In this document: positions 26,862-34,189 of the stretch, one piece after another
Layout of the letters: each line of letters starts with the position of its first letter
Numbering within the stretch: the stretch's first letter is position 1
From: an uncultured Christensenellaceae bacterium
Lineage (GTDB): Bacteria > Bacillota > Clostridia > Christensenellales > UBA3700
Direction: 5' to 3'
Assembly (NCBI GenBank): GCA_944383905.1
Contig: CALWRI010000010.1
Span: 1,589 to 65,588 of the forward strand
DNA: 64,000 nt
Notes under the pieces: generated by a model
Database searches by the model: none
What the model was told of the DNA's origin: nothing
Seen by the model: the letters and a program-made list of their open reading frames with translations, nothing else
Position numbers and translations under genes: made by a program

Positions 26862-26902
26862 CGTCTTTTCGGATAACGACTTCCGAAAACGTACCGCAAA
26901 GC

Positions 26903-26933
26903 AAAACGACGCCCTTCACGGACGTCGTTTTTT
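26903..26933. terminator. Bidirectional terminator between leuB and the convergent TIR operon
   Basis: AAAACGACG...CGTCGTTTTTT. Confidence 0.65.
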
Positions 26934-26949
26934 CCCGACAAGTATTGGG

Positions 26950-27741
26950 TTATCTGAGGTTATCCTGCCAGTTCTTGTGCGCGTAATACTTGTTGACCTG
27001 CGTGTTCTGCCTCTGCTCGTGTTTTCTGCCGCGCAGTATCAGTACGTCGGTGAAAGGCGCGTCGAACATCGTCTTCATCACCTCGTTGTACTTTGCGGAA
27101 TCGATATTCTTGCAGGAAAAAATATCCATCAGGACCTCCCGCGTTTCGTAATTGTAATGCATTGCGATATGACTTTCCGCGATCAGGACGATACCCGACA
27201 AAAAACGCGGGGCGTCCACCCTGTCCTTGAGCACGCACGGACGACTGATCGGATGCATATCCACCTCGTAAGGAAGTCTGTCCAGCTTGTCGCTGAATTC
27301 GTCGAGAGTGGGAACGTGATTGAGAACCGCGCTTATCATATAATGCGGTCCGAAATCCGCGACGTCGTACATGCCCATGTCGTTTTTCTTAAACTCGTTC
27401 CTGTCTATCCTTTTTATAAAAAATGCGTCGCAGGGAAATTCCTTTTTGAGCAGTTTTTCGAGCAGATCCCCCGAGACGAATCCGTCGTAAAGAAGGTCGA
27501 GAAAATAACAGCCGAGCTGCGGAAAGGTATGTATCGTCAGATGCCCTCCCCTGATGAGAACGTAAGCGCTTATGCCGACGTCCTCGAGGTTCTCGCAATA
27601 GTAATAAGGAATGAGTTGCGGCGGCATGACGGACTCAAGCCTCATGGTGTTGACTATTTTGTTGAGCACCTCGTATACGTCCATCAGATTGTCGAGACGC
27701 TGGGTGCTGCAACCGTATGAATCTACCAAAACGTGTATCAT
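26950..27741 (-). CDS. Tandem two-domain SpeD/AdoMetDC-fold pyruvoyl-dependent decarboxylase
   Basis: Domain 1 GISAYVLIRGGHLTIHTFP..LDL; domain 2 FGPH..LSGIVLIAESHIAMH..MDIFSCK. Confidence 0.85.
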   Translation of the reverse strand: MIHVLVDSYGCSTQRLDNLMDVYEVLNKIVNTMRLESVMPPQLIPYYYCENLEDVGISAYVLIRGGHLTIHTFPQLGCYFLDLLYDGFVSGDLLEKLLKKEFPCDAFFIKRIDRNEFKKNDMGMYDVADFGPHYMISAVLNHVPTLDEFSDKLDRLPYEVDMHPISRPCVLKDRVDAPRFLSGIVLIAESHIAMHYNYETREVLMDIFSCKNIDSAKYNEVMKTMFDAPFTDVLILRGRKHEQRQNTQVNKYYAHKNWQDNLR

Positions 27742-27756
27742 GATCTTCTCCCGAAG

Positions 27757-28458
27757 TTAATAATATTTTACTATCCTGTTTTTTACCGAAAAGTCGTCGA
27801 GATTTATGTATGCGGTATATCTGCTGTCGCCGAAAACGGAGCGTTCCTTCAGGATATACCAGCAACCGTCTTCGTCTTCGGAGAGCAGGTCGTATGCAAA
27901 ATAATCTTTGCCCCCGATCCGAAGGAATATCTTGTCGCCGTTTTTTACGACGGCGAAGTCCTTGAGGAATATCATATCCGTGACGAGCGAGCGCACGAAG
28001 CCGAACACATCCTCGCTCTTGCTGACGCTGATGTTGAATTTGTTTTTCCACTCGTAGATAAAGCCGTAATATCTGCTGTATTCGCGCGGCTCGGAGGACA
28101 ATATATCCTTGAAAAGCGAGTTTTCGTTGGAAATTACGTCTCTTTTGACCTCCGTGAGCACATATATCACGACGTCGAGTCCGTAAGGCTCCGCTTTGTA
28201 GAGAAGCTCGAAAAGCTCGACCGCTCTTTGCGCGTGTCTGCAATCCCCCTGTCTGGATGAAGGAGCGCCGCAGTTGAGCCATTTGCAGTACGCCGCCGCA
28301 AACGCTATCTGAAGCAGACGGTATATCTGCGCTACGCTGCGGAAATCGCGCGGAGACGCCTCCGGCATACCCGTGATGAGCCTCATCGCGTTTTCGTCTT
28401 TGACGCTTTCGTTGATATACGCGGCGAGCTGTCTGAAATCAGAGATCTGTTTTTCCAT
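27757..28458 (-). CDS. Hypothetical protein (233 aa)
   Basis: ATG 2 nt after the ParA-like stop; host-like codon usage; no recognised motif. Confidence 0.7.
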   Translation of the reverse strand: MEKQISDFRQLAAYINESVKDENAMRLITGMPEASPRDFRSVAQIYRLLQIAFAAAYCKWLNCGAPSSRQGDCRHAQRAVELFELLYKAEPYGLDVVIYVLTEVKRDVISNENSLFKDILSSEPREYSRYYGFIYEWKNKFNISVSKSEDVFGFVRSLVTDMIFLKDFAVVKNGDKIFLRIGGKDYFAYDLLSEDEDGCWYILKERSVFGDSRYTAYINLDDFSVKNRIVKYY

Positions 28459-28460
28459 AA

Positions 28461-29360
28461 TCAGTCCACGATCAGTTTTGCGAGCTTCGTGTAGCGCACG
28501 AGCGCGGTCTTTTCGTCCTCTTTGAGCTCTCTCGACTTTTTGAGGTCGTAAAGTATGCCTTCCTTCCATTTGAAGCGGCCGATCTCGTTGATGCCGAAAT
28601 TGTCCGCCGAAAGAAAATTGTCGTAAATGCGGAGATTGTCGAGAGTCTCGAGCCTTTTCGCTATGTCTTCCGCCGCGCTTTCGAGCTGTCTGACGCCGTC
28701 TATCTCGACGTCTGCGGGTACAACGGTGGGAAGAAGAATTATGTCGGTATCGTCGCCGAAACTGCCCACTCTCATGCTCATGCGTTTGAGATAGTTGAAC
28801 GTCCCGATCCGGAATTGGATCGTGGGTCTCATACAGAACACGAGCTTGTCCGCTATCTCGACCGCAAGCCTTGCCGAGAACTGGTCGCCCGCCGCAGAAT
28901 CGAATACCGCTGCCCTGACCTTGTTGTTCATGCAGAAATGTCTGAACTTGGTGAGCACGGCTTCTATCGCTCCCACGATAACGGCGCGGTCGAGAGCGTT
29001 GCTGCTGTCGTCCACCCCGAGGAACATCACGGCTTTATCGTTCTCGAGACCGAGCTTTTTTCCTACCGGCCGGAAATACTTGTAAAGAGGATGATCGGTA
29101 ATACCCTCTCCGACCGAATTCTGCGGCCAGTTTTCCTCTCCTTTTATCAACTCTTTGACGTCGAATTTATCCTTGAATTCGTCCTGCATACCGAGGAGAT
29201 AGGTCATGCCCGCGCTTTCGATGTCCATATCGAGCAAAAGTATCGGAGCGTTTGCGTTTGCTCCGCACTCGTCCGCGAGCAGAGGCAGGGTGTTCAGGCA
29301 GGTAGTGCTCCTGCCGGCGCCGCCTTTATAAGAGAAAAACGTAACGAAAGTCGCTGCCAT
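28461..29360 (-). CDS. ParA/MinD-like (deviant Walker A) P-loop ATPase
   Basis: FFSYKGGAGRST, LLDMDIESAG, VFDSAAG. Confidence 0.85.
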   Translation of the reverse strand: MAATFVTFFSYKGGAGRSTTCLNTLPLLADECGANANAPILLLDMDIESAGMTYLLGMQDEFKDKFDVKELIKGEENWPQNSVGEGITDHPLYKYFRPVGKKLGLENDKAVMFLGVDDSSNALDRAVIVGAIEAVLTKFRHFCMNNKVRAAVFDSAAGDQFSARLAVEIADKLVFCMRPTIQFRIGTFNYLKRMSMRVGSFGDDTDIILLPTVVPADVEIDGVRQLESAAEDIAKRLETLDNLRIYDNFLSADNFGINEIGRFKWKEGILYDLKKSRELKEDEKTALVRYTKLAKLIVD

Positions 29361-29361
29361 A

Positions 29362-31179
29362 TTATTTGTCCCCCTCGATAATGTTTATAAGCGTTTCGGG
29401 TTCGGTCCTGAGTTTTCTTACCCAACCGTCCGCAAACTTTTCCGCGTCCGCTTTGAGCTTCGTCCTCAACTGCCGGACGTTCTCGTCGCTCTCCGCGTTC
29501 ACCCTGACGTATTTGTCGATATAGCTGTATATCATATCGCCGAAAAGCTCGTGCAAAGCCTTTTCGTGCTCTTCGAGCTGCACGTCCTTGCCGTAATTGA
29601 AATCGATAATATGCGCGATCGAGGATACGAGCTGGTCGCGGATGGTATCTTTCATCGTTCTGCGAAGCAGGTTTTCGATCTCGTAACTCTGTCTGAGCGC
29701 GGCGATCTCGTCTTCATGCTCCTTCGCGACGTCTTTCTTTATCCTTTCGCGCAGCGCCTTTTCGACGCGCTTCTCGACCTTGATCTCCGCCTCTTTCTCA
29801 AGCTCTTTCTTGGTTTTGAGCCGCTCCGCATACTCTCTTTCGTAGGTGTCGTAATATTGATAGAAATCCGCGATAGCTTCGATATAGCGTTCGGTATTCT
29901 CTATATCGTAGTTCATATTGTCCCAGATCCAATCCTGCGCGTTCATCCTGTCGAAAAGCTCGAGGAAAAGCGTGCTCATCTGTTTTTGCGGGTATCTCGA
30001 AATATAAAACGCTATGATGTTGTTCGCCTTGACGAGAATGGGGACGATGCTCGCGTCGATTAATCTCTCCGCGTTGAGAAGTTTCATGAACTTGTCGCCC
30101 TTCGCCTCGTGCATGGACTGATAATTCATATAGTATGTGTCGACGACGTACTCCTTGTTCTCCTTGGAGAGTTGCTCGTATATCCTCTGCACGTTCTGCA
30201 AAGCGGCGTTCATCGTCGCGACGACGTCTTCCTGTTCCTGCTCGTCGTCTCTGACGTTCGCGTATCCGTATATCAGAATAAATATTATATAGACCGTATT
30301 GAAAAGCGCGTTGGACGACGACGCTTTGAGCAGGTCGTCTTTTGTGACCGTCCTGATGTTTTCGAGAAAATCGTCGCTGACGAGATCGGTCTTGAGCACG
30401 GTCTTGTACTTCTGCCATACGTTTTCCGCGATCTTCTTGCAGGTCTTTCCCCAATCGGCTTCGATATGCGAATTGCTCTTGTTTTCGTTGATGAGCGCGA
30501 TAAGCTCCGTATCCGCGGGATTGCCGTCCGCGTCTTCGAGCAGAATGTTGTCCTCAAAGTCGCTGTACGCCTCGAGCACCGAATATGTAAAGAAAAGCGA
30601 AGGCTTCTTGCAGTCAAGCGTATAATTCCAGCCGAGAGGATTGTCCGCGGTGCCTATGACGGACTCGTTGAACTTGTTGATTATCTTCCTCATCTGCCTG
30701 ACGATTATGTCGTCATACTTCTGATCCAGCTCGAGAAGTCCGGCTTTCGTCGCCTTTCTCACGCTCGACAAAAGAGATAAGCACCACGTCATCGCGCCCG
30801 TATAAGGATAGACCGACGAGAACAGCTCCGAATTCTTGCGTTCGGAGACGTATGGATAGAGGTTGTAGCCGTTGTTCTCGATATAGTCGAACACTCCGGT
30901 AACGCAACCTTCGAGATCGTGCTTGTACTCGTCCGGCAGTTGCACCCCCATTCTGTTGATCAGAGAAAATACGCCCGCGCACCCGTATACGTCGCAGAGA
31001 AATCCTGTCTTCTGTTCCTTGTCGTCGGATATAAAATGAAGTTGTCCGTCTTTTTTGACCGTCTTCGTCCAAAGACTCTGAAGGATCTTTTCACCTATGA
31101 CTTTGACGTCGACGTAATTTTTGAATGTGGACGACTGGTCCGAACGTCCGAATAAAATCTGTCTTACACTCTCTCTCAT
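29362..31179 (-). CDS. Hypothetical alpha-helical protein (605 aa) with C-terminal coiled coil
   Basis: Long ORF with RBS; GWNY..PSLFFTYSVLEA; WIWD..TERYIEAI; charged heptad region KTKKELEKEAEIKVEKRVEKALRER. Confidence 0.75.
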   Translation of the reverse strand: MRESVRQILFGRSDQSSTFKNYVDVKVIGEKILQSLWTKTVKKDGQLHFISDDKEQKTGFLCDVYGCAGVFSLINRMGVQLPDEYKHDLEGCVTGVFDYIENNGYNLYPYVSERKNSELFSSVYPYTGAMTWCLSLLSSVRKATKAGLLELDQKYDDIIVRQMRKIINKFNESVIGTADNPLGWNYTLDCKKPSLFFTYSVLEAYSDFEDNILLEDADGNPADTELIALINENKSNSHIEADWGKTCKKIAENVWQKYKTVLKTDLVSDDFLENIRTVTKDDLLKASSSNALFNTVYIIFILIYGYANVRDDEQEQEDVVATMNAALQNVQRIYEQLSKENKEYVVDTYYMNYQSMHEAKGDKFMKLLNAERLIDASIVPILVKANNIIAFYISRYPQKQMSTLFLELFDRMNAQDWIWDNMNYDIENTERYIEAIADFYQYYDTYEREYAERLKTKKELEKEAEIKVEKRVEKALRERIKKDVAKEHEDEIAALRQSYEIENLLRRTMKDTIRDQLVSSIAHIIDFNYGKDVQLEEHEKALHELFGDMIYSYIDKYVRVNAESDENVRQLRTKLKADAEKFADGWVRKLRTEPETLINIIEGDK

Positions 31180-31219
31180 ATCTTCTCCCTCGTATATCTA
31201 ATTTATCCCGAATATCCGT

Positions 31220-32266
31220 TCAGTTGAAATGCTTTGTCAGACAATGGAATCCGCCCCCGCCGAGGTACGCTTCGGTCGCGTCGAGCCTGATTATCTCCCT
31301 GTCCGGGTATACGCTCCTCAATATCTCAAACGCCTCGTCATCCTCTTTTATCCCGAACGCGGGCATGATCACCGCGCCGTTGACCTGGGCATAATTCACA
31401 TAGGTATACAATACGCAGTCTCCGCTCTTTCTCGCAAAACTGCCCTCTTTGTCCACGATGTCTCTGCTGTCCGCTTCCGTCCTTTTGTGAAACGCCGGCA
31501 CCGGCAGCTTTACTATCCTGTATTTTTCGCCGTCCGCGTTCCTGACTCCGGAAAGAATGTCGAAAAGTCTGTGCGTGACTTCAAAATGAGGATTGCTCTC
31601 GTCGTCGGTGTACGAAAGCAGCATCGTATTCTTGTCCGCAAAAGCGAGCACGTTGTCGATGTGTCCGCCCGTCTCGTCACCTTCAAGTCCGAACGGCAAC
31701 CAGATCAACTGCCTGCTCTCCGTCGCTTCAAGCAGGATCTTTTCTATCTCCTCTTTCGTCATCGACGGATTTCTGTTGTCGTTGACGACGCTGTCCTCGA
31801 CGACGAAAACCGTCCCGTTTCCGTCGGGAGTGATGTTTCCCCACTCCATAGTAACGGGATAATGCTTCACCTCGTAGCCGAACACTTTTTTCGTCAGAGT
31901 TTCGTTGAGCGCGGCGTCGTTGTCCCACGAGCCGTAAAGCTCGCCGCCGTATGCGTTGAACCCAAGCGCGTTGACGCGTTTTTTTCCGTTTTCGCCAACG
32001 CATACGCTCGCAAGCATATCTCGCGCCCAGCAGTCGTCGTATCTGACCTCGAAAATCTCCGCACCGGGAACGAACGCGTAATGCGCGAGAACGTACTCCT
32101 TCATCTCCGGAAGCACTCCGACTATGACGCGTTGTCTTTTTGCTATTTCGTTGACGAGTGCCGTCATCATCTTCTGCGCAGGGACCGCGTTGTCTCTCCA
32201 TACGTCGGTCCTGTAAGGAAACAACGTCACCGTCGCAATCTGTTTTTCGTATTCGCCTTTGAGCAT
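31220..32266 (-). CDS. aguA: Agmatine deiminase
   Basis: DDCWARD, DGNGT, NRNP, ETGGHID, YVNY, GGGFHCLT. Confidence 0.88.
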   Translation of the reverse strand: MLKGEYEKQIATVTLFPYRTDVWRDNAVPAQKMMTALVNEIAKRQRVIVGVLPEMKEYVLAHYAFVPGAEIFEVRYDDCWARDMLASVCVGENGKKRVNALGFNAYGGELYGSWDNDAALNETLTKKVFGYEVKHYPVTMEWGNITPDGNGTVFVVEDSVVNDNRNPSMTKEEIEKILLEATESRQLIWLPFGLEGDETGGHIDNVLAFADKNTMLLSYTDDESNPHFEVTHRLFDILSGVRNADGEKYRIVKLPVPAFHKRTEADSRDIVDKEGSFARKSGDCVLYTYVNYAQVNGAVIMPAFGIKEDDEAFEILRSVYPDREIIRLDATEAYLGGGGFHCLTKHFN

Positions 32267-32278
32267 ACCGGCCTCCGC

Positions 32279-34024
32279 TTATTTTGAATATCTCGCGAGC
32301 AACTCGCTGTTGCTGCGCGTCAGTACGCTCTTGATAGAAGTGTCCAGCGTGGACAGATAACAGAACGCGCGCGCAAACCTCTTGTACTCGTCGTTGACGG
32401 CGTCGTAAACGATCACCGTGTCGCTCGAGCTCGACGTCGTGGAATTTATCCCGGTGGAATACCATGACGCGCTCGCGGAATTGTTGTTTATGAAGAACAC
32501 GAAGCTGAAGCACTGGTCTATGCACAGATCGTGCGACAGCGGCAGACAGTACAGATTTCTCATCGCTCTGTCCGCTTCTTCTTCGGTTACGGCGATCTCC
32601 TCTCCGTCTTCGTCGTAAGAGAACTGCATCCAGTTTCCTATCTTCGGGAAGGGGCACGCGCCTTTCTCGTCCGTACTCTTTGAGTTGAGGGTATAATTGA
32701 TTATCTTCCTCGACTCCGACACGTCGAGTTTTATCTCGCGGAGCTGCCATCTTTCCATATCGCGCAGCTTCACGCAGTATTTGCAATATCTGTTGATCTC
32801 GTTCAGAAGTATCGGATTGACGTCCATAACGTCGTTGAGTATCGCGACGAACTTTTCGAGGAAGGACACGAATCTGTACGCGTCCGCTTTCGCGACTCTC
32901 TCCGAGGTGCCGCCGCCGTAATCCGCTTCAAGCCACTTGATGAAGTTTTCGGGAACGCTGTATATGTCTTCGTCATAATCGTCGTACGCTATCGAGAACG
33001 CGTTGTCGTCCGACATCAACAGATCGTCGAAAGCCTTGACGTCCTTGCCTATGACAATATGATATTTGTTGAGAAGATCTTTCTTTTTCAGGTTGTCGAA
33101 AGACCTGAAGAAATCCGAAACCTTATTGCGCAGACAGAATTCTCTCCTGATCATATTGGCGACTTCCTGTCTCGCCGCGTTATCCTTTTTGATGAAGCTC
33201 CTTATCTTCGCGCAGAAAGGCTCCCAACTCTCTTTGACGTAATCCTCCGGACAATAGTAATAGTATTTGACGCCCGACACGTTGCCGTCGGGGTCCCTTG
33301 CCGCAAGATTGCTCGAAATTATCATGCAGGAATATGTGTTGCAGTCGTAATTGTTGAGTTCGTTGGTAAGTATATGCGCTTCTTTGAGCATTGCGGGATT
33401 GACCTCGTCGCACGACTTGATGTCGTCGTTCACGCTCCTCGCTATGCACTCCTTTCCTATGCAGTATTTCATAAGATCGACGAATATCCTCGAATCCACC
33501 ATCTTCTTGTGCGAATAATTGATATTCTCCATCAGAGCGGAAAGATATTTCCTGCAAACTTCTTTGAGTATTTCGGTCGACGTTGACGGGTTGAAATATC
33601 TGATCAACGTGTCTTTTTCGATGATATGAAGAGACTTTATGCTGTCGGGAAGATCCCTGTAAGATATGTCTTCGATGGCTATCGGGTAAATCTGCAGCCT
33701 GCTGTTTGAAACCGCCGCCATGTCGGCATAGCTCTTCAACTCTTTGAGCACTTCGACTGAAGTGATGGAATTCTTCGACAATACGGGGATCATGAGACAG
33801 GTCTTGGCGATCTGCAAGTTTATTTCGTTTTCGTATTTGTCTCCGCCGTAATTCCTCTCCTGCCCGTTGCCGTAATACATACTCCAATAACAGACGTCGA
33901 GAGACTCCATTCCGTTGATTATACCGCGCACTTTGTCTATATCCGCGCTGCAAAGAGAAATGAATATCTTGTACCTTTCGAGATTGAGGCTTTTTGCCAT
34001 ACTGTCGATCGCGGTTTTGTTCAT
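32279..34024 (-). CDS. TIR-domain protein with long uncharacterised C-terminal region
   Basis: KIFISLCSAD; GDKYENEI; LMIPVLSKNSITSVEVLKEL (Glu95); IYPIAIED. Confidence 0.8.
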   Translation of the reverse strand: MNKTAIDSMAKSLNLERYKIFISLCSADIDKVRGIINGMESLDVCYWSMYYGNGQERNYGGDKYENEINLQIAKTCLMIPVLSKNSITSVEVLKELKSYADMAAVSNSRLQIYPIAIEDISYRDLPDSIKSLHIIEKDTLIRYFNPSTSTEILKEVCRKYLSALMENINYSHKKMVDSRIFVDLMKYCIGKECIARSVNDDIKSCDEVNPAMLKEAHILTNELNNYDCNTYSCMIISSNLAARDPDGNVSGVKYYYYCPEDYVKESWEPFCAKIRSFIKKDNAARQEVANMIRREFCLRNKVSDFFRSFDNLKKKDLLNKYHIVIGKDVKAFDDLLMSDDNAFSIAYDDYDEDIYSVPENFIKWLEADYGGGTSERVAKADAYRFVSFLEKFVAILNDVMDVNPILLNEINRYCKYCVKLRDMERWQLREIKLDVSESRKIINYTLNSKSTDEKGACPFPKIGNWMQFSYDEDGEEIAVTEEEADRAMRNLYCLPLSHDLCIDQCFSFVFFINNNSASASWYSTGINSTTSSSSDTVIVYDAVNDEYKRFARAFCYLSTLDTSIKSVLTRSNSELLARYSK

Positions 34025-34067
34025 GCTCCCCTCCTTTCGTTCGTTGAGTCGCTCTGCGACCGTATAA

Positions 34068-34096
34068 AGTATAACATATAAATAACGATTTTACAA
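34068..34096 (-). promoter_or_regulatory. SigA-type promoter of the TIR operon
   Basis: TTGTAA-N17-TATACT with TG extension; AAAGGAGG RBS before the ATG. Confidence 0.65.
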
Positions 34097-34189
34097 CATT
34101 TTTTTGTAAAGACTCTCGGGCAAAACAAAAGCCGCCCCTTTCGGAGCGGCTGAAATAGCCTTTTTTGTCGGTCTGCCGTCAGACGGTCG

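Follow-up and report, generated by a model that had tools for sequence, protein, structure and literature searches.

A candidate anti-invader operon of the APE class joining a TIR protein, a predicted toroid protein and a variant ParA-like ATPase to two arginine/polyamine-type enzymes in a chicken-gut Christensenellaceae bacterium

Background

The closest described relatives of the locus reported here are the APE systems (alpha-alpha toroid, ParA, effector), a class with a three-gene core that was defined by Li, Burroughs and Aravind (22 October 2026, bioRxiv 10.64898/2026.10.19.760177). According to the part of the preprint text available, one subtype combines a bDLD6 effector with an upstream TIR fusion, a deiminase and an S-adenosylmethionine (AdoMet) decarboxylase, and the toroid-ParA pair is proposed to act as a sensor or barrier, backed up by the effectors as a second line, with possible depletion of AdoMet by the decarboxylase. 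The locus examined here lies in a stretch of 64,000 nt (contig CALWRI010000010.1 of assembly GCA_944383905.1), henceforth called the window, from an uncultured Christensenellaceae bacterium of the chicken gut, near-identical DNA being present in chicken-gut metagenomes of nine studies. It is a six-gene operon of about 7.1 kb, which is probably an APE-class candidate anti-invader system of the subtype with a TIR fusion, a deiminase and an AdoMet-decarboxylase-fold protein. A preliminary description of the window had held that no described system had this composition, a claim that was overturned by the match to the subtype in the available text of the preprint.

All six genes lie on the minus strand and span 26950-34024, with intergenic gaps of 12, 40, 1, 2 and 15 bp; this co-oriented arrangement between leuB and mgsA, as reported in the preliminary description, was confirmed from the coordinates of the open reading frames (ORFs). 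The features of the locus are as follows:

34068..34096, minus strand: promoter-like site ahead of the TIR gene, TTGTAA, 17 nt, TATACT with TG (extended -10), from a scan and a consensus match only
32279..34024, minus strand: TIR581 (581 aa), N-terminal TIR domain and C-terminal region of about 440 aa, from ORF and profiles
31220..32266, minus strand: AguA-like deiminase (348 aa), PAD_porph family, from ORF and profiles
29362..31179, minus strand: H605 (605 aa), predicted alpha/alpha-toroid and charged helical tail, from ORF and homologue model
28461..29360, minus strand: ParA/MinD-fold ATPase (299 aa), from ORF, motif and models
27757..28458, minus strand: U233 (233 aa), family match absent, in the slot after ParA, from ORF with the start set by homologue alignment
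26950..27741, minus strand: SpeD2 (263 aa), tandem AdoMet_dc-fold protein, from ORF and profile
26904..26933, no strand: bulged G+C hairpin with flanking A and T runs, possible two-way terminator between the convergent leuB and SpeD2 genes, read from the sequence

For U233, the ORF list contains a 270-aa frame from an upstream ATG, and homologues align from the 233-aa start.

Comparison with described systems

As far as the available text of the preprint goes, the bDLD6 subtype and the window operon have in common an Arg-variant ParA next to a toroid protein (predicted here) whose tail is charged, and a gene that fills the effector slot following ParA. Both also encode, upstream, a TIR fusion protein (matched here in its TIR part), together with a deiminase and a protein of the AdoMet_dc fold. 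The bDLD6 effector is described there as an SH3, helical, Death-like, helical, OB protein, whereas U233 is far shorter. The same text speaks of "a deiminase or AdoMet decarboxylase", whereas both are present in every complete locus of the family to which the window operon belongs. The tandem, half-dead SpeD and its likely arginine substrate, both features of this family, are not mentioned in that portion of the preprint, and neither is the gene for a protein with two transmembrane helices that is found in loci of the family whose cluster has no TIR gene. Relative to this text, it is new that both enzymes are obligatory and tied to a constant core, and that the variable site of the island also hosts a TIR+GNAT cassette; a tandem SpeD with apparently one live site and probably of arginine type, and a TIR gene that appears exchangeable with the two-helix gene, are likewise added here.

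Literature searches combining agmatine deiminase, TIR, SpeD and defence gave no match, those for "KGGVGR" and for "PDC-M28" gave nothing relevant, and ParA, toroid, TIR, deiminase and phage were found together only in the APE preprint. No full set was recovered by PADLOC (Thoeris, CBASS, Pycsar, short pAgo and PDC-M28), as had been expected in the preliminary description; only weak single-domain hits were obtained, to the Aga TIR (5.8e-5) and to PDC-M28B (1.2e-7 over 55 residues), and the other four proteins had no hits.

Conservation of the gene block

Eighteen H605 homologues were aligned, and one genome per species was scanned, which yielded 24 loci from metagenome-assembled genomes of Clostridia, one Cloacimonadota and one Erysipelotrichaceae; one of them (L004) is from the same-genus genome G014. 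In tblastn searches, the genes for the AguA-like protein, H605 and the ParA-like protein were recovered colinear and co-oriented in 24/24 loci. SpeD2 is present in 23 of these, the exception (L011) stopping at a contig edge, and the U domain is found in 22 by tblastn and in 23 by phmmer, while in L027 an unrelated 198-aa ORF occupies the U slot. A metagenome scan added 8 further loci, and all 5 that are long enough have the same gene order (metagenome locus L051 is the same contig as L023). When ParA, SpeD2 and AguA were each placed in a maximum-likelihood tree, every tree split two locus classes with a single label change, and sub-clades were shared; the trees being concordant, the enzymes were not recruited repeatedly.

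Hence, the six-gene block is one co-inherited unit and not a chance neighbourhood. The preliminary view that the six genes form one system agrees with this colinearity and with the co-diverging trees, and its expectation that aguA and the double speD recur elsewhere with the conflict-type genes was borne out for the ParA, 605-aa and U233 genes, in the same order, in every locus long enough. The constant unit consists of the AguA-like deiminase, the toroid protein, the Arg-variant ParA, the U-domain protein and the tandem SpeD. The sixth gene is exchangeable: one class encodes a TIR protein, and the other a protein predicted to have two transmembrane helices near its C-terminus. The TIR gene is therefore not constant, being present in 11/24 loci and missing from the cluster in 12/24.

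In class 1 (the 11 loci L004-L012, L024 and, weakly, L027), the TIR581-type gene stands first. In class 2 (12/24 loci), the cluster contains no TIR gene and both enzymes are kept. The class-2 U protein has 730-774 aa with the U233 domain at its N-terminus, U233 corresponding to the N-terminal 240 aa (hhalign probability 99.9); U233 itself gave no family match and no PDB sequence match. Downstream of SpeD, 10 of the 12 class-2 loci carry a gene of about 510 aa, and the contigs of the remaining two end there. Its product has no family match and was predicted to carry two C-terminal transmembrane helices in 4/4 homologues tested, which makes it a possible membrane effector:

L017:15858-17375, after SpeD: protein of about 510 aa with two transmembrane helices; homologues in L013-L015, L018-L021, L025, L026, L049 and L052

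The Cloacimonadota locus (L023) falls with class 2 in the trees; its U protein is short, and the start of AguA is overlapped by the gene for another type of TIR protein, of 375 aa. Within the class-2 U protein (L017:12808-15033 and 10 homologues), a second, weak phmmer match to the U233 domain was observed at about residues 300-400; it was not confirmed by hhalign (E 0.73) and may be a degenerate internal repeat.

The AguA-like deiminase and the tandem SpeD protein

The AguA-like protein is matched by PAD_porph at 272.9 bits and by the agmatine deiminase equivalog TIGR03380 at 287.9 bits, the latter below its cut-off of 381.8. Among proteins of solved structure, agmatine deiminases are its best matches (E 6e-54 to 6e-50), and full-length similarity and the catalytic Cys/His/Asp motifs are common to it and AguA (TIGR03380; 2ewo, 1vkp, 2jer); the H202/D204 and C342 motifs are kept in 25/25 sequences. 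It differs from AguA in the score below the equivalog cut-off and in having no AguB, putrescine carbamoyltransferase or antiporter partner.

Two stretches of SpeD2 match AdoMet_dc (Pfam; 86 bits). Among NCBIfam models, the protein comes closest to that of the Bacillus-type AdoMet decarboxylase (AdoMetDC; TIGR03330), at 66.2 bits and thus below the equivalog cut-off of 75.65, and the best solved relatives are AdoMetDC proenzymes. The double-domain SpeD of the preliminary description was retained as regards the tandem fold, but only the C-terminal half keeps the pyruvoyl serine; at the Glu-Ser cleavage position, the N-terminal half has Gly-Gly (GGH). The C-terminal half carries E189-S190-H191, H195 and C210, and its pattern ([EQ]-Ser-His, His+5, Cys+20), which corresponds to S63, H68 and C83 of the Thermotoga enzyme, is found in 24/24 sequences. 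In the same 24/24 sequences, no Pro occurs between the Ser and the Cys, whereas a single Pro stands in this interval, from pyruvoyl Ser to catalytic Cys, in both of two solved AdoMetDC sequences. According to the available part of Li et al. 2023 (PMC10407285), all true AdoMetDCs keep a Pro in this region, and the arginine decarboxylases have lost it. Two marks of a bona fide AdoMet decarboxylase, an equivalog-level score and a Pro between Ser and Cys, are thus lacking in SpeD2, which, by its sequence, appears to be an arginine decarboxylase and not an AdoMet decarboxylase. Because only the C-terminal half keeps the pyruvoyl serine and lacks the AdoMetDC-type Pro, a route from arginine via agmatine to N-carbamoylputrescine is indicated.

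The SpeD-derived pyruvoyl arginine/ornithine decarboxylases and SpeD-SpeD fusions reported by Li et al. 2023 (PMC10407285) share with SpeD2 the class 1b AdoMet_dc fold, the tandem fusion, the Ser/His/Cys triad and the loss of the AdoMetDC-type Pro, as far as the accessible text of that paper shows. In the fusions described there, the N-terminal half is a true AdoMetDC and the C-terminal half an ornithine decarboxylase or dead, whereas in SpeD2 the N-terminal half is dead and the C-terminal half live; moreover, those fusions adjoin speE, whereas SpeD2 lies in a conflict-type operon.

It is unlikely that the SpeD-fold protein is a true AdoMet decarboxylase which drains AdoMet during infection, e.g., blocking viral DNA methylation, with the deiminase as an unrelated add-on. 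This explanation, which follows the suggestion in the available text of the APE preprint, agrees with the AdoMet_dc match, the nearest NCBIfam model and the best solved relatives, but is opposed by the score below the equivalog cut-off, by the missing Pro in the sole half with a pyruvoyl serine, by the agmatine-deiminase-type gene that accompanies the SpeD gene in all 23 loci where SpeD was seen, and by the low turnover given for pyruvoyl enzymes of this fold in the accessible text of Li et al. 2023 (PMC10407285).

Within the host assembly (G000; 94% complete), AdoMet_dc, PAD_porph and TIR_2 genes occur nowhere but in the island. The absence of speE and aguB from the window that the preliminary description had reported extends to this assembly, in which speB was likewise not found, here or in the window. 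Neither a spermidine synthase nor an arginase-family gene was found in the assembly; the CN-hydrolase family is represented there by NadE alone and Orn_Arg_deC_N by LysA alone. N-carbamoylputrescine is therefore left with no evident onward route in the host, as SpeE, SpeB, AguB and arginase-family genes were not found in the assembly. One other candidate decarboxylase was recovered, a 582-aa protein of the Orn/Lys/Arg-decarboxylase family (G000:C1:105140-106888; L059:541-2289, minus strand), with 2x3l as best solved relative (E 8e-27), and it is the sole other such candidate in the host.

That these are ordinary polyamine biosynthesis genes which merely happen to lie inside a defence island is very improbable. 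A SpeD-type arginine decarboxylase followed by AguA is indeed a known route toward putrescine (available text of Li et al. 2023, PMC10407285), but the interleaved gene order is fixed in all loci, the enzyme trees agree with that of ParA, AguB, SpeB and SpeE are missing from the assembly, and the genes are absent from 13/15 genus genomes.

The TIR protein

The TIR domain of TIR581 covers about residues 17-140 and is matched by TIR_2 (Pfam) at 24.7 bits (cut-off 28). A profile of its 12-sequence family matches the solved TIR-APAZ chains of SPARTA at E 5e-6, the range over SPARTA, Thoeris and the CRISPR protein Cat1 being 5e-6 to 4e-4. E95 is invariant in 12/12 sequences and aligns with Glu77 of the solved TIR-APAZ chains, which we take to be the catalytic residue. 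In contrast to those systems, the window operon has no pAgo, ThsA or CRISPR partner, and the C-terminal region of TIR581 has no match. This region of about 440 aa contains many invariant residues, gave no match in Pfam and PDB searches, and has homologues only within the same architecture (12/12 matches), with only TIR annotations.

The preliminary description had proposed that a polyamine-type metabolite is made and removed as a signal, cofactor or antitoxin controlling the TIR effector; such a metabolite, made and removed within the system, may well exist. The direct form of this idea, in which agmatine or N-carbamoylputrescine is a second messenger, made and removed within the system, that switches the TIR effector via its C-terminal domain, draws on the fact that the cluster encodes a producer and a remover of one small amine and on a large, conserved C-terminal region whose many invariant residues could bind a ligand. 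It is nevertheless rather unlikely. Both enzymes are kept in the 12/24 loci whose cluster has no TIR gene, which argues against a metabolite that mainly controls the TIR protein. No profile similarity was found between TIR581 and the class-2 proteins, and the comparison of its C-terminal region with the class-2 protein with two transmembrane helices gave an hhalign probability of 0.1; the two therefore have no shared receptor domain. Furthermore, agmatine is widespread in metabolism, and a second, putative decarboxylase is encoded by the host.

The toroid protein and the ParA-like ATPase

H605 gave no Pfam, NCBIfam or PDB sequence match; clustered at 50%, its family comprises 380 representatives. 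A homologue with 43% identity (P0027) has an Atlas model that resembles prenyltransferase/squalene-cyclase toroids, residues 12-467 being aligned to toroid proteins with TM scores of 0.42-0.43 by query and 0.68-0.70 by hit. The predicted toroid domain of H605 covers about residues 1-445, with S194, T198 and S289 of the protein invariant, and is followed by a charged helical tail of about 160 aa (44% charged, 3% Gly/Pro) that is 33-44% charged in 18/18 family members. In the APE definition of the preprint, the toroid has a conserved Ser/Thr where TED domains have their thioester Cys, a position for which S194, T198 and S289 are candidates.

Weak alignment (TM score 0.36) to the toroid part of the P0027 model was also seen for a cluster of Verrucomicrobiota proteins that have ThsB_TIR/TIR_2 domains, which suggests that TIR-toroid fusions may exist elsewhere.

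The ParA-like protein is matched only by the domain model "KGGVGR-motif variant AAA ATPase" (46.6 bits, cut-off 90), while Atlas models give TM scores of 0.7-0.87 to MinD/ParA proteins. The family assignments of the preliminary description hold, with the caveat that the scores for TIR_2, TIGR03380 and this ParA-like domain model are all below their cut-offs. In the Walker A motif (YKGGAGRS), Arg17 replaces the P-loop Lys, and the pattern YKGG[AS]GR[ST] is found in 25/25 sequences. Arg in place of the Walker A Lys is the stated mark of the ConB2 immune assemblage in the available text of bioRxiv 10.64898/2026.10.19.760177. An invariant S-A-G follows the DMD sensor motif of the ParA-like protein, and P-V-G stands at 98-100; in that portion of the preprint, the PG motif of ConB2 is placed downstream of sensor-1.

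A further lead concerned the Streptomyces cassette SCO2521-SCO2525, since an H605 homologue was placed nearest SCO2524-family clusters (score 0.85) by a language-model feature search. SCO2523 of this cassette is a "variant P-loop protein". Kinship with SCO2523 and SCO2524 was not confirmed: SCO2523_fam reached E 0.14 on one ParA homologue, and 10 distant and 18 close H605 relatives gave no NCBIfam or Pfam match (Pfam to E 10). No functional literature on SCO2521-2524 was found.

Distribution and insertion site

H605 was found in 2/41 related genomes, i.e., in 2/15 genomes of the genus, and in 1/401 sampled Bacillota genomes (G000 alone). In the second genus genome (G014), the island lies at the same leuB-mgsA site as in the host. 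This site is empty in three genus genomes, the two genes being 112-296 bp apart, and in five others (L044-L048, from G001, G013, G005, G009 and G006) it holds a TIR+GNAT pair (e.g., L044:173-1883), in which a TIR_2 protein of 369 aa (E 6e-22) is paired with a GNAT acetyltransferase of 206 aa. Over its whole length, the former shares 35% identity with the 375-aa TIR protein of L023 (E 2e-84). The island is thus accessory and located at a variable site. At its ends, comparison with the empty-site relatives revealed no direct repeats and no alignable intergenic DNA.

A role outside immunity would make the operon a ParA-positioned cellular machine, using the toroid protein and an arginine-derived amine for a task in the envelope, the nucleoid or development, with the TIR protein as a nucleotide-processing enzyme. 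The mostly housekeeping flanking genes, the failure to find phage or plasmid copies and the classical function of ParA/MinD proteins in positioning cellular structures would all fit. We regard this as clearly unlikely in view of the patchy distribution (2/15 in the genus, 1/401 in the phylum sample), the other TIR cassette held by the variable site elsewhere, the exchange of TIR and two-helix genes, and the inclusion of Arg-variant ParA in a clade predicted to be immune in the available preprint text.

Working model

A conflict or defence role is plausible, since the TIR domain retains the catalytic Glu, the effector genes are swappable, and the island is accessory and occupies a variable site. 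In the working model that goes with assignment to the APE class, the toroid protein and the ParA-like ATPase would sense an invading element and serve as the switch. The TIR protein, with its catalytic Glu kept, would destroy NAD+ (nicotinamide adenine dinucleotide) and abort infection, and the class-2 protein with two transmembrane helices would act equivalently at the membrane. The tandem SpeD with its single pyruvoyl site would most likely decarboxylate arginine to agmatine, which the AguA-like enzyme would then convert to N-carbamoylputrescine. As the two enzymes accompany the constant core with either kind of effector, their amine product would most likely act on that core (toroid, ParA or U protein) and not on the TIR protein.

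Several points weigh against this model. The toroid fold of H605 is taken from predicted models of a homologue, with a TM score by query of only 0.42-0.43, and the APE preprint is computational only. The substrate of SpeD is not readable from sequence with certainty, class-2 SpeD proteins have Gln-Ser where class 1 has Glu-Ser, and the Pro meant by Li et al. 2023 was inferred from two solved AdoMetDC sequences. Agmatine may not be private to the system, since the host has a putative second Orn/Lys/Arg-family decarboxylase. The genes flanking the 24 loci vary and are mostly of ordinary metabolism, with defence genes near some loci only, and H605 had no match in plasmids, phages or viral contigs. 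Finally, G000 and G014 are 56-86% identical in the island, 95-98% in leuB, leuD and mgsA, 75% in the fucosidase and 66% in the flavodoxin; fast evolution of the island is not demonstrated, because its divergence resembles that of the fucosidase and flavodoxin.

Small primary amines react with the thioester of C3 and of alpha-2-macroglobulin. By analogy, the arginine-derived amine might be no free signal but a chemical partner of the toroid protein, seen as complement-like: agmatine made by the tandem SpeD might react with, or be loaded on, an ester-type reactive site of its TED-like domain, and the PAD-family deiminase might remodel the attached or free guanidino group, thereby arming or disarming the sensor. 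We consider this variant a long shot; if true, it would amount to a bacterial immune system in which polyamine chemistry gates the covalent tagging of an invader.

This subtype is the only one in which two arginine/polyamine-metabolism enzymes are locked to the sensor core, whichever killing module is present. The role of the amine, once shown, would link polyamine chemistry to bacterial immunity, whether the amine signals, quenches, binds covalently to a complement-like domain or serves as a metabolic sink, and it also bears on the proposed kinship of the toroid with complement thioester domains. For such work, the window offers a compact six-gene example with clear catalytic residues to mutate.

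Regulatory signals and expression

The operon is flanked on one side by leuC/leuD/leuB on the plus strand and on the other by mgsA and then an alpha-L-fucosidase gene on the minus strand. Of the single promoter proposed in the preliminary description (34068-34096), the consensus match is present, located downstream of a clean, strong mgsA terminator (34151-34130), and a Shine-Dalgarno sequence precedes the TIR581 start. The promoter-like site is weak evidence all the same, because such sites are no commoner in the region than in shuffled sequence (9 versus 6.4, standard deviation 2.3). The shared terminator likewise stood only in part: the hairpin between leuB and SpeD2 was not called by the terminator scan, and a bulged hairpin with a T-run is visible by eye at about 26904-26933.

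Contigs of 151-261 bases that are at least 99% identical to the window (26900-34150) were found on all six genes in metatranscriptome library X19, which hints at expression of the island in the chicken gut. Co-transcription is not demonstrated, since none of these contigs bridges two genes by 31 letters and DNA carry-over is possible. Library X24 contained nothing on the island, and library X20 is probably DNA.

Neighbouring genes of the other loci

Of the proximity to defence islands for which the preliminary description had proposed a check, only part was seen: the flanks are mostly metabolic, and defence-type genes (pPIWI_RE restriction endonuclease, YhcG nuclease, ThsB-like and PDC candidates) stand beside some loci. 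The class-2 locus L017 is flanked by a YhcG-type PDDEXK nuclease and a pPIWI_RE-associated restriction endonuclease (L017:7228-8232 and L017:18159-19283), i.e., by a defence-island setting. In two closely related class-2 loci, a gene for an inosine-uridine-preferring nucleoside hydrolase lies directly upstream of AguA on the same strand (L016:7683-8630 and L025:7621-8565).

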